From the NCBI GenBank assembly GCA_963818965.1, contig CAWFUG010000002.1, positions 96,001-160,000 of the forward strand: a stretch of 64,000 nucleotides of DNA, in the 5' to 3' direction. The notes under the pieces were generated by a model. It was not told the origin of the DNA, ran no database searches, and worked only from the letters and a program-made list of their open reading frames with translations. This DNA is from an uncultured Verrucomicrobiae bacterium. GTDB lineage: Bacteria > Chlamydiota > Chlamydiia > Chlamydiales > Rhabdochlamydiaceae. Positions 45,357 to 47,279 of this stretch are shown piece by piece (the stretch's first letter is position 1; the number at the start of each line of letters is the position of its first letter). The translations under genes were made by a program, and so were the position numbers.

Positions 45357-47279
45357 TTGTCTGTGCACTACCCACTCAATTGGAACCTAAACTCTTTCTT
45401 CCCAAATTATAACCCTATACCCGACGTGACTCAAAAGTTGGCCATTGGACCGCGCCAAAACCCCGCGATTGAGATTGCCGAAGAGGGGGGTAGTATTGAA
45501 GAAATACAACCCCCCTCTTCGGCAACTCAATCCCGGGAGTTTTCACGTGGGTCCAATGGCCAACTTTTGAGTCACGTCGGGTATACATCTGCACTCAAAG
45601 ACGTCCGAGAAAAAATTGCAGCGCTCAAAAAACGCGCGGCAACACAAGATTTCCCCTCTTATTTCGAAGCGCTGCAAGAGCTCGATGCACAGATCCGAGA
45701 GCTCGACTCCTTTGTCCTCTGCCTAGAATCTCAGAACGTCGAAGATCCCCTTCCCCTAGCCTGGCGCGCCGAAATTTCCCAATACACTTCCGACCTCGAA
45801 CAGCTCAATCAATCATTCGACCGGGATTTGAGCGCCTTGACAGACTCTGCTTTTCACACCCTCCTCAAAACCCCCGAGTGGACTCCGCTAGCCTTCCTCT
45901 TCCAAGAGCGAAAAGAACGTGTCCAGATGCAGCTCCCTCTAGCGCAAGAACAGTTGATCAGCAGTTTGTCCGTAGACGGTTATCACGGATGGGGAGATTT
46001 TTATCCTCAACTCGTCGCAGAAGTGAAGATCCCTAGCACGACTACTCTCCTCTCGGTTGGCCAAGCGGAAAACCTCCTCACCCATCCCGATCGAGCCGTC
46101 AGAGAGCAAGTCTTCACAGCTTTTGAAAACAGCTGGGAGCAGAAAAAGCACCTCTTCGCCTCCATTTTAAACCACATCTCTGGGTTCCGCCTCCAGACCC
46201 TAAGTCGCAGAGGGATCGCCGACCCACTCCAAGAACCCCTCTTCGAATACCGGATGCGCAAAGAAACTCTAGAGGCGCTATGGGCCGCCGTCGATGCGAA
46301 CAAAACCCCCTTCCTCGATTTTTTATCCCTTAGAGCCTCTCAATTGAACGTCGAGCGCCTCGCCTGGTTCGATCTCGATGCGCCGATGGAAGAAGGACCC
46401 CAAGACCCCATCCCTTATGAAGATGCGGCAGCCCAAGTCATCGCGCACTTCCACCACTACCACCCCGGGATGGGAGCATTCGCAGAAAAAGCCTGTCGCA
46501 ACGGGTGGATCGAGGCAGAAGATCGACCGGGAAAACGGCCCGGGGGCTTTTGCACATCTTTCCCTAAGACCAAAACGAGCCGCATCTTCATGACTTATTC
46601 GGGGACCCTAGAAAACGTCTCCACCTTAGCCCATGAGCTCGGCCACGCCTACCACAGCGAACAAGTGGAAAACCTCCCCAGCTTCGCGCAACACTACCCC
46701 ATGAACATCGCAGAGACGGCATCGACATTCGCAGAACACCTGCTGCAAGAGTCGCTTCTTCAAAATGCGAAAAATCCAGAAGAAAAGCGCAAACTCCTAG
46801 GAGATCGGATCCAGCGTTCTGCCAAATACTTCCTCAACATCCACGCCCGCTTCCTCTTCGAAACCACCTTCTATGAAAGGCGCAAAGGTAGTTATGTCAG
46901 CGCAGAAGAACTCTGTGCGCTCATGCAAGAAGCTCAAGCAAAGGCCTACAAAAACAGTTTAAGCCAATACCACCCCTATTTCTGGGCCTCTAAGCTCCAC
47001 TTCTACTTCACAAAAATCCCCTTCTACAACTTCCCCTACACTTTCGGGTATCTCTTCAGCCTCGGCCTCTTTACAAGAGCGAAGCAAGAGGGTAAAGCAT
47101 TCATGCGCACCTACGACCTCCTCCTCAAGGAATCGGGTCTCATGAGCATCGAAGACCTCGCAGCGACACACCTCGGCGTCGACCTCTCGCAACCCTCATT
47201 CTGGCAAGAAGCGATGGCCACAGCTACCCGCGATGTCGAGGCTTATCTAGAACTTCACTCATTAAATCGGATAAAATAA
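45357..47279 (+). CDS. pepF: M3 family oligoendopeptidase F carrying an in-frame 56-aa palindrome-derived insert
   Basis: GKRPGGFC, TLAHELGH (HExxH), AETASTFAE, FYNFPYTFG. Confidence 0.9.
   Translation: MSVHYPLNWNLNSFFPNYNPIPDVTQKLAIGPRQNPAIEIAEEGGSIEEIQPPSSATQSREFSRGSNGQLLSHVGYTSALKDVREKIAALKKRAATQDFPSYFEALQELDAQIRELDSFVLCLESQNVEDPLPLAWRAEISQYTSDLEQLNQSFDRDLSALTDSAFHTLLKTPEWTPLAFLFQERKERVQMQLPLAQEQLISSLSVDGYHGWGDFYPQLVAEVKIPSTTTLLSVGQAENLLTHPDRAVREQVFTAFENSWEQKKHLFASILNHISGFRLQTLSRRGIADPLQEPLFEYRMRKETLEALWAAVDANKTPFLDFLSLRASQLNVERLAWFDLDAPMEEGPQDPIPYEDAAAQVIAHFHHYHPGMGAFAEKACRNGWIEAEDRPGKRPGGFCTSFPKTKTSRIFMTYSGTLENVSTLAHELGHAYHSEQVENLPSFAQHYPMNIAETASTFAEHLLQESLLQNAKNPEEKRKLLGDRIQRSAKYFLNIHARFLFETTFYERRKGSYVSAEELCALMQEAQAKAYKNSLSQYHPYFWASKLHFYFTKIPFYNFPYTFGYLFSLGLFTRAKQEGKAFMRTYDLLLKESGLMSIEDLAATHLGVDLSQPSFWQEAMATATRDVEAYLELHSLNRIK
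45416..45585. mobile_element. Palindromic MITE-like element, family A, inserted in frame
   Basis: tatacccgacgtgactcaaaagttggccattggacc / ggtccaatggccaacttttgagtcacgtcgggtata; element plus TA = 168 bp. Confidence 0.92.

Follow-up and report, generated by a model that had tools for sequence, protein, structure and literature searches.

An in-frame, TA-flanked palindromic element in the oligoendopeptidase gene pepF of a chlamydia-like bacterium

The question raised by the locus described here is whether a short mobile palindrome can settle within a housekeeping gene and leave behind an enzyme that carries an additional peptide. The locus is located in a 64,000-nucleotide (nt) stretch of contig CAWFUG010000002.1 (positions 96,001 to 160,000; assembly GCA_963818965.1), hereafter called the window, and it comprises pepF, the gene of an M3B oligoendopeptidase F, together with a palindromic element resembling a miniature inverted-repeat transposable element (MITE), which was found close to the 5′ end of the gene. 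A sequence-only reading of the window had proposed that the element was inserted in pepF without a break of the frame, in the manner of the Rickettsia palindromic elements (RPE). In the present analysis, a recent in-frame insertion of a TA-duplicating, MITE-type palindrome in pepF was considered highly probable. The genome assembly was found to contain 2.24 Mb in 12 contigs with a completeness of 87.85%, pepF being located on a contig of 186 kb.

The pepF gene was found to be contained in a single open reading frame (ORF) extending from position 45357 (TTG) or 45363 (GTG) to position 47279, which corresponds to 640 or 638 amino acids, with the insert placed after codon 20 or codon 18, respectively. 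The translation across the element was found to read ...FFPNYNP-IPDVTQKLAIGPRQNPAIEIAEEGGSIEEIQPPSSATQSREFSRGSNGQLLSHVGY-TSALK... and to contain no stop codon; as the net insertion comprises 168 nt, the frame of pepF was kept. The position of about 20 codons into the gene and the peptide of 56 residues given by the sequence-only reading were both recovered, the latter residue for residue. Among the three phases relative to the TA dinucleotide, only one was found to be free of stop codons when read from the sequence, and this phase is the one used by the insertion in pepF. No family was found in Pfam for the 56-residue peptide at E-values up to 10. Downstream of the insert, matches to Peptidase_M3 (PF01432, E 7e-23) and Peptidase_M3_N (PF08439, E 1.6e-8) were found, and the closest solved relative by sequence was oligoendopeptidase F 2qr4 (E 8.7e-27). 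The residues H424, E425, G427, H428 and E451 were found to occupy invariant columns among 63 aligned sequences, so that the earlier statement of an intact HExxH enzyme held. The public gene call (P0001) was found to contain 638 amino acids with 100% identity to the pepF ORF.

Two orthologue alignments were made, one of 17 and one of 63 sequences, the latter consisting of the pepF product and 62 orthologues. The 56-residue insert was found to be absent in all 62 orthologues and in the other proteins of the smaller alignment, in agreement with the alignment gap of that length which had been expected. In the span of the inserted residues the orthologues were found to hold 0-15 residues, with 9 residues in 53 of the 62, and their median length was 587 amino acids vs 638 amino acids for the PepF studied here; the best orthologues were about 54% identical and about 580 amino acids long. 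Removal of the 168 nt was found to yield ...FFPNYNPTSALK..., which is equal in length to the ...FFSGGSRSEPLH... of the orthologues.

A natural empty site was searched for in the contigs of four public metagenome runs, which were aligned to window positions 45100-46300. A contig of 179 nt with a depth of 2.3, from a permafrost metagenome (run X2), was found to cover positions 45341-45415 with 5 differences, followed by positions 45584-45687 with 2 differences. The joint between these parts skips 168 nt (45416-45583) and leaves a single TA, with TA..TA ends and two letters that fit either side. The contig was about 96% identical to the 5′ end of pepF over its 179 nt and comes from a relative and not from the same strain. 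Since exactly these 168 nt are skipped, the contig represents an empty site and points to a recent insertion with duplication of the TA; the length of 166 bp plus TA, or 168 bp, that had been assigned to the element earlier fits this joint. Set against the natural empty site, the pepF element is a precise and recent insertion at a TA. A contig of 241 nt from run X5 was found to contain the element itself (4 differences in 168 nt) between unlike flanks. A pepF orthologue was found in only one of the five genomes that were tried for an empty site (G017, 46% identity), and no pepF match was found in the genome of the same genus (G001; 220 contigs, 89% complete).

The element, which starts with TATACCCGACG and ends with CGTCGGGTATA (window positions 45416-45585), was found to contain outer arms of 36 nt (45416-45451 and 45550-45585) with 100% complementarity, followed by the presence of inner arms of 48 nt with 73% complementarity. 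The arm mismatches noted previously are thus present in the inner arms, and that description does not apply to the outer 36 nt. The arm pattern of the element was matched in none of 100 shuffles of the window. As a single strand the element was found to fold into one hairpin of about 80 bp, with a fold energy of -138 kcal/mol as RNA (z -19.0) and of -86.1 kcal/mol as DNA (z -18.0), and in either form none of 200 shuffles folded equally well. The search of the element against Rfam gave 12 matches at E ≤1, all of them far under the gathering scores and belonging to microRNA-precursor and viral hairpin models; these were read as generic hairpin likeness. On the minus strand at 45406-45434, a promoter-like site was observed (TTGAGT, a 17-nt spacer and TATAAT; 10 of 12 positions matching the consensus, this match being its whole definition), the -35 box of which is contributed by the left arm of the element and the -10 box by the flank in pepF. 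It runs antisense across the pepF start, toward the divergent gene at 44897-45235.

The element was found to belong to a dispersed family. By blastn with the element, 69 merged places were found in the genome, and a profile built from 12 full-length copies gave 96 places at E ≤1e-3, including 44 of at least 120 nt. The copies at C8:290705, C7:8548, C11:165270 and C3:52681 were 96-99% identical to the pepF copy, and older copies were 75-91% identical to it; the near-identical copies imply recent activity of the family. The 29 copies of at least 160 nt were found to contain TATACC at the beginning in 26 cases and GGTATA at the end in 27 cases, the terminal arm was present at 20 places in the genome (≤6 mismatches), and deletion derivatives were found among the copies. 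Compensatory changes were found in 40 of the 71 predicted pairs when an alignment was made of 17 copies, taken from this genome, from two relatives and from public contigs, which indicates that the whole hairpin and not merely its ends is maintained. The elements were also found to be poor in stop codons: among copies of at least 150 nt, the 20 outside long ORFs contained on average 1.8 open frames of 6, vs 0.56 in mononucleotide shuffles, and the 10 inside long ORFs contained 3.3 open frames of 6, these averages not being independent counts because the copies are related and palindromic.

A 31-nt mini form of the element was observed as well, in which the left arm is joined to the final bases of the right arm at a TTGG common to both. 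It was found at no fewer than 14 places in the genome (≤2 mismatches), including C3:18126-18156, C4:1598, C8:186853, C9:425179, C11:230553, C11:153635 and C12:3890, and in six loci of other metagenome-assembled genomes (MAGs), namely L064, L065, L067, L071, L072 and L074, near position 2501 (1049 in L072). The lone arms found in other MAGs were mostly such mini forms. The form may result from a deletion that removes the hairpin reproducibly, or it may be a very small derivative that is itself mobile.

Copies of the family were also found inside other genes. Of the five young copies, three were found to share one phase and one peptide within long open frames, namely those in pepF, in recC and in the gene of a BBE-type FAD oxidase, and each young copy was found to be spanned by only one frame of the plus strand. 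In recC, the Pfam match to Exonuc_V_gamma was found to begin at profile position 26, directly after the element. The oxidase gene (C11:165241-166872; L031:241-1872) contained a 97%-identical copy, which looks as if it were placed between the charged N-terminus and the hydrophobic part of an apparent signal peptide; this insertion may disable export or force the use of a downstream start. When residues 17-76 of PepF were used in a word-based search, P0001 was the sole find (13 candidates; proteins of 350-1117 amino acids), and the public calls for recC and the oxidase are therefore likely to begin downstream of the element.

Among the 96 profile places, 25 were found in the open frame of a stop-to-stop ORF of at least 200 amino acids, a number that is an upper bound because many of these places are located in the first 60 codons and may precede the true start. 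In four cases the element was found to be flanked by Pfam matches on either side, namely in aroA (EPSP synthase, split in two stretches), a C-methyltransferase, a TRAM/U5 tRNA methyltransferase and an MsrA-MsrB fusion, and the Sulfate_transp match of sulP was found to be interrupted at the element (profile match C9:100348-100514, 72.2 bits). A further match of the same superfamily (C2:34953-35084, 59.9 bits) was located in the ORF C2:33948-35282, for which no Pfam match was found at E up to 1e-4, and for 7 of the 20 element-bearing stop-to-stop ORFs searched against Pfam no family was found. The RPE-like protein insertion that had been suggested from pepF is in line with these results, the family being dispersed and having further copies in frame in other genes. 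The copy at 1350-1518 of the window, with 82-nt arms of 100% complementarity and a 5-nt loop, was found to split the frame of a histidine phosphatase into the ORFs 924-1391 and 1565-1810 by a net insertion of 167 nt, which confirms the frameshifting copy of 167 bp reported at 1350. The perfect arms of this diverged copy hint at arm-to-arm correction, or else at a master copy with perfect arms from which the insertion arose very recently.

In other genomes, related elements were found for 8 of the 40 relatives searched; of the 24 genomes belonging to the same family 7 contained them, and the single genome of the same genus (220 contigs) contained none. In G020, which belongs to a different genus, a related copy was found to be read in the same frame within an ORF of at least 776 amino acids without a Pfam match, and in G012 a half-element was found within a phosphofructokinase ORF. 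The PepF of another organism (P0029, represented by its protein sequence only) was found to contain its own insert of about 50 residues located about 22 residues further along, the core of which, IEEIQTPSEIVESRDF, resembles IEEIQPPSSATQSREF of the pepF insert; the scan of metagenomes for its DNA gave 17 pattern matches, none of which was confirmed. A HMMER search of the insert peptide against 1.84 billion representative proteins gave 13 finds at E ≤0.001. Several of these were found to contain the peptide within longer proteins of 249-370 amino acids without a Pfam domain, and 6 of the 7 longer finds sent to Pfam were without a family. One find was rejected as a probable chance match, namely P0130, which is a histidine phosphatase containing internal repeats (34% identity). 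The terminal-repeat pattern was found at 17 loci in two public collections, and these were distributed among MAGs titled Chlamydiae bacterium (4), Parachlamydiales bacterium (1) and Verrucomicrobia or Verrucomicrobiae bacterium (4), one 5-kb contig labelled Saccharibacteria, one 'uncultured bacterium' and 6 metagenome contigs.

The genome was found to contain three full-length genes of the ATP/ADP-translocase (TLC/NTT) and a fourth, shorter match, with none in 14 control genomes; as a hallmark of energy parasitism, these genes fit an obligate intracellular bacterium. The named relatives of PepF were from Parachlamydiales, Simkaniaceae and Protochlamydia at 44-48% identity, with those of Paenibacillus and Bacillus being similar. 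No match to Chlam_OMP6 (PF03504) was found in the genome, and none was found in the controls either. The designation 'chlamydial' given earlier is supported by the TLC genes, the Parachlamydiales-type relatives of PepF and the Chlamydiae MAGs, and it is weakened by the PepFs of Bacillus type and by the MAGs titled Verrucomicrobia, which match as well. The best reading of the host, though not a proven one, is that of an environmental chlamydia. As a separate observation, the M3 oligoendopeptidases of Paenibacillus and Bacillus (44-49% identity) are about as similar to the chlamydia-like PepFs as the named Parachlamydiales and Simkaniaceae ones, which hints at an old transfer of PepF between Firmicutes and chlamydiae.

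The placement of the insert in the protein was modelled with AlphaFold2 from the 63 aligned sequences. The model of PepF was found to have a mean predicted local distance difference test score (pLDDT) of 88.6 and a predicted template modelling score of 0.88. The only segment with a pLDDT below 50 comprised residues 21-69, within the insert (residues 19-74), followed by the presence of a helix at residues 69-91. In this model the insert forms a disordered loop that separates the conserved N-terminal segment from the first helix and stays clear of the catalytic domain, the rest of the fold being confident; since the insert has no homologues in the alignment, a low pLDDT is expected, and the model gives the placement and not the structure. 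The sequence of events most consistent with these results would be that a non-autonomous TA-duplicating palindromic element of MITE type (166 nt plus TA) was recently inserted at a TA straddling codons 18 and 19 of pepF. The only phase set by that TA position (cc-T|A-TA CCC ...) contains no stop, and the ORF stays open. The PepF product would then contain a hydrophilic, disordered loop of 56 residues and an unaltered catalytic domain. The element would presumably be moved by cut-and-paste or copy-in through a transposase supplied in trans, as for TA-duplicating MITEs.

Several points weigh against the reading of an in-frame insertion that leaves PepF working. The contig with the empty site is short and has a low depth, and the TA duplication is not formally distinguishable from an element that carries one TA itself. 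Given that the public calls for recC and the oxidase probably leave the element out, the in-frame status of these two copies is less sure, and no family was found in Pfam at E up to 10 when the 33 residues before the recC copy were searched alone. The intact ORF downstream says little on tolerance, the insertion being young and having had no time for decay. A near-perfect RNA stem of about 80 bp was found to lie 51 nt after the start codon; with RNase III encoded in the genome, this stem is a plausible substrate, and the output of pepF may be reduced. No RNA run containing the stretch was found, an outcome that is neutral as to the expression of pepF. IS630/Tc1-mariner elements duplicate TA, and no match to DDE_3 (IS630 type) was found in the genome, with matches in 5 of the 14 control genomes; Y1_Tnp (PF01797; RAYT) was likewise without a match in the genome and was matched in 6 of the 14 controls. 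The resident 1.2-kb insertion sequence (IS) of the DDE_Tnp_1 type was rejected as a partner, its ends CTTTGTACCGGACAAAATTT being unrelated to those of the element.

The matches to DDE_Tnp_1 were located at four places in the genome, three of which belong to this IS with copies of 99.9% identity, including one at window positions 53485-54685 (G000 C2:149485-150685). The fourth match (C9:267355) was found to be single-copy, with ends that are not definable and no element arm nearby. Among the 17 public terminal-repeat loci, no arm pairs 1-2 kb apart and no longer element with the same ends were found. The assembly being 87.85% complete, the absence of a partner from the organism is not shown by these searches.

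The alternative that survives best starts from the RNA stem and holds that the insertion is real and harmful or silencing. The mRNA hairpin would be cut by RNase III or would block elongation, or the loop would disturb the N-terminal segment; pepF would be becoming a pseudogene, and its open frame would be arithmetic only, a multiple of three in a stop-free phase. The stem of -138 kcal/mol and the presence of RNase III fit this course, and so does the sister copy at 1350-1518, which broke a gene. The insertion is also very young, as seen from the copies of 96-99% identity and the relative of about 96% identity with an empty site, and little time has been available for selection. It may also be that pepF is dispensable, no match to it having been found in the same-genus genome G001, but the missing gene is weak evidence in an assembly that is fragmented (220 contigs, 89% complete). 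Against a harmful outcome, decayed older copies were found to be still in frame in enzymes that keep their domains (aroA, MsrAB and the tRNA methyltransferase), and the intact PepF P0029 of another organism carries an independent insert nearby, from which it follows that such inserts can be tolerated in the long term; the loop predicted for the insert in the present PepF lies, moreover, at a distance from the catalytic domain. Harm or silencing was regarded as an unlikely outcome, though one to be taken seriously.

Translation might also begin within the element or beyond it, e.g. at the TTG of the right arm, which would give M-SHVGYTSALK...; the element would then be a 5′ leader, and PepF would lose its first 18 residues. 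From the left end of the element to about residue 190, no in-frame ATG, GTG or TTG other than this TTG was found. The public calls for recC and the BBE oxidase seem to start downstream of the element, and many copies of the superfamily are located within the first 60 or so codons of stop-to-stop frames, some of them maybe upstream of the start. No Shine-Dalgarno-like motif was found at the proper distance before the TTG of the right arm, however, whereas the upstream GTG is preceded by GGAG at a distance of 7 nt. The N-terminus obtained with the GTG start was found to reproduce the M-x-Y-x-x-x-W-[DN]-L of the orthologues, the residues W7, L9 and F13, encoded in frame upstream of the element, are nearly invariant (at least 90% of the 63 sequences), and the public gene call has the 638-residue form. 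A downstream start, on which the sequence-only reading would have foundered, was judged quite improbable. The translation of PepF most likely starts upstream of the element, and the longer PepF translated from the upstream GTG may be made and may still be functional.

The possibility that a dispersed repeat of 170 nt was wrongly threaded into the pepF of a metagenome-derived genome was considered scarcely credible: the assembly consists of 12 contigs at 87.85% completeness with near-identical copies elsewhere in the genome, but on either side of the element the same gene goes on in frame within a contig of 186 kb, the junctions show the precise TA..TA of most other copies, and a misassembly at repeats joins unrelated flanks instead of placing a repeat exactly at a TA inside a gene. 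Translational bypass of the hairpin or its removal at the RNA level was rejected as very unlikely, no supporting feature having been found.

An in-frame insertion in pepF being preferred over these alternatives, the element was compared with known systems. In the RPE, in-frame insertion was described by Ogata et al. (2000, 2002), whose results are summarised in a 2024 review of MITEs as elements of about 150 bp in ten families with 44 insertions in genes of R. conorii (PMC10969869), and for R. bellii 526 RPE, of which 53 were within protein-coding genes, are given in another report (PMC1458961). The element resembles the RPE in being a short dispersed palindrome (about 100-170 nt) in the genome of an obligate intracellular bacterium, in having many in-frame copies that add a family-specific peptide to unrelated housekeeping genes, in its fold-compatible insertion sites and in having no known transposase. 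It differs from them in its host, which is neither Rickettsia nor another member of the Rickettsiales, the PepF relatives and the terminal-repeat MAGs being titled Chlamydiae, Parachlamydiales and Verrucomicrobia; in its anatomy, which is that of a classical MITE with a full-length, near-perfect hairpin of 80 bp, clear terminal repeats and TA duplication; and in the natural empty site, by which a very recent insertion is documented. The element would appear to work like an RPE without being filed as one, the likeness being one of behaviour.

With the TA-duplicating MITEs of IS630/Tc1-mariner type, the element shares a length below 300 bp (166 nt) without coding capacity for a transposase, perfect terminal inverted repeats of 36 nt, a flanking TA at each end where the empty site has a single one, and many copies including deletion derivatives. 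It differs from them in that the assembly contains no DDE_3 transposase and the 17 loci contain no autonomous partner with the same ends, and in that complementarity spans the element from end to end and is maintained through compensatory changes, which exceeds the needs of terminal transposase binding. The palindromes of REP/REPIN-RAYT type (REP, repetitive extragenic palindromic) and those derived from IS200/IS605 are similar as dispersed hairpin repeats that are possibly moved as single-stranded hairpins. The REPs are described as extragenic and of 20-40 bp (PMC3733652), and the present genome differs in containing neither a Y1 transposase nor a RAYT (PF01797). Small mobile sequences of the intragenic ERIC/BOX type resemble the element in creating in-frame fusions with host ORFs, which the review treats as occasional and not regular (PMC10969869), and they differ from it in phylum and structure.

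No description of palindromic, MITE or RPE-type elements in chlamydiae was found in the literature searched, most subscription journals being outside its scope. The 2024 MITE review calls in-frame insertion of RPE unusually frequent in Rickettsia and 'conceivable' elsewhere, and the string 'chlamydi' does not occur in it (PMC10969869). The same string does not occur in the main text of a 2024 survey, the supplements of which may list chlamydial genomes (PMC11602168), and in PMC3733652 chlamydiae are mentioned only in the abbreviation list and in a reference. The evidence supports a MITE-type coding insertion resembling that of the RPE, i.e. a known behaviour, which is of interest here for its occurrence in a new phylum, for the empty site found in nature and for the signs that the family is currently active. 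The coordinates of the features are given in Table 1.

Table 1. Positions of the pepF element, its host gene and further features (window coordinates, or contig and position where a contig is named)
Feature	Position	Strand	Remarks
Palindromic MITE-like element with flanking TA on each side	45416..45585	+	170 nt; net insertion 168 nt
Left copy of duplicated TA target	45416..45417	.	joint with two letters fitting either side; family ends
Right copy of duplicated TA target	45584..45585	.	empty-site joint; family ends
Left terminal inverted repeat (perfect outer arm)	45418..45451	+	inverted-repeat search
Right terminal inverted repeat (perfect outer arm)	45550..45583	+	inverted-repeat search; arm recurrence in genome
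pepF (M3B oligoendopeptidase F) coding sequence	45363..47279	+	GTG start; alternative TTG 45357; ORF, Pfam
Inserted codons, 56 (IPDVTQ...SHVGY)	45417..45584	+	residues 19-74 of the 638-residue protein; translation
GGAG Shine-Dalgarno-like motif	45352..45355	+	7 nt before GTG; read from sequence, putative function
HELGH zinc-binding motif, intact	46632..46646	+	H424-H428; coordinates computed from GTG start
Older sister copy breaking histidine-phosphatase gene	1350..1518	-	169 nt, 76% identical, perfect 82-nt arms
TLC/NTT genes	C11:394937, C1:68533, C11:80822, C8:103423		three full-length, one partial

In-frame selfish palindromes in housekeeping genes have so far been treated as a peculiarity of Rickettsia, and here they were found in a chlamydia-like genome, with the advantage of a MITE anatomy, near-identical copies and a natural empty site in a wild relative. 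For annotation, the finding is a warning that long perfect hairpins in chlamydial ORFs are to be taken as mobile DNA rather than as sequencing errors, and that gene callers are inconsistent on the sister cases. As the same enzyme exists in nature both with and without the insert, the tolerance of proteins to 56-residue insertions, and the question of whether such elements are favoured by intracellular lifestyles, are open to direct tests. It is put forward tentatively, as a possibility with less than even chances, that an active superfamily of TA-targeting, full-length-hairpin MITEs exists in environmental chlamydiae, which is adapted to survive inside genes and provides a regular and ongoing source of protein insertions. 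This would be consistent with the members being poor in stop codons and encoding disordered, hydrophilic loops, and with a translated core ...SIEEIQ-P... that was found to be common to diverged subfamilies, genera and public proteins. If true, it would be a second, independent invention of the RPE strategy, in another intracellular lineage, and one that is testable through natural presence/absence polymorphism.

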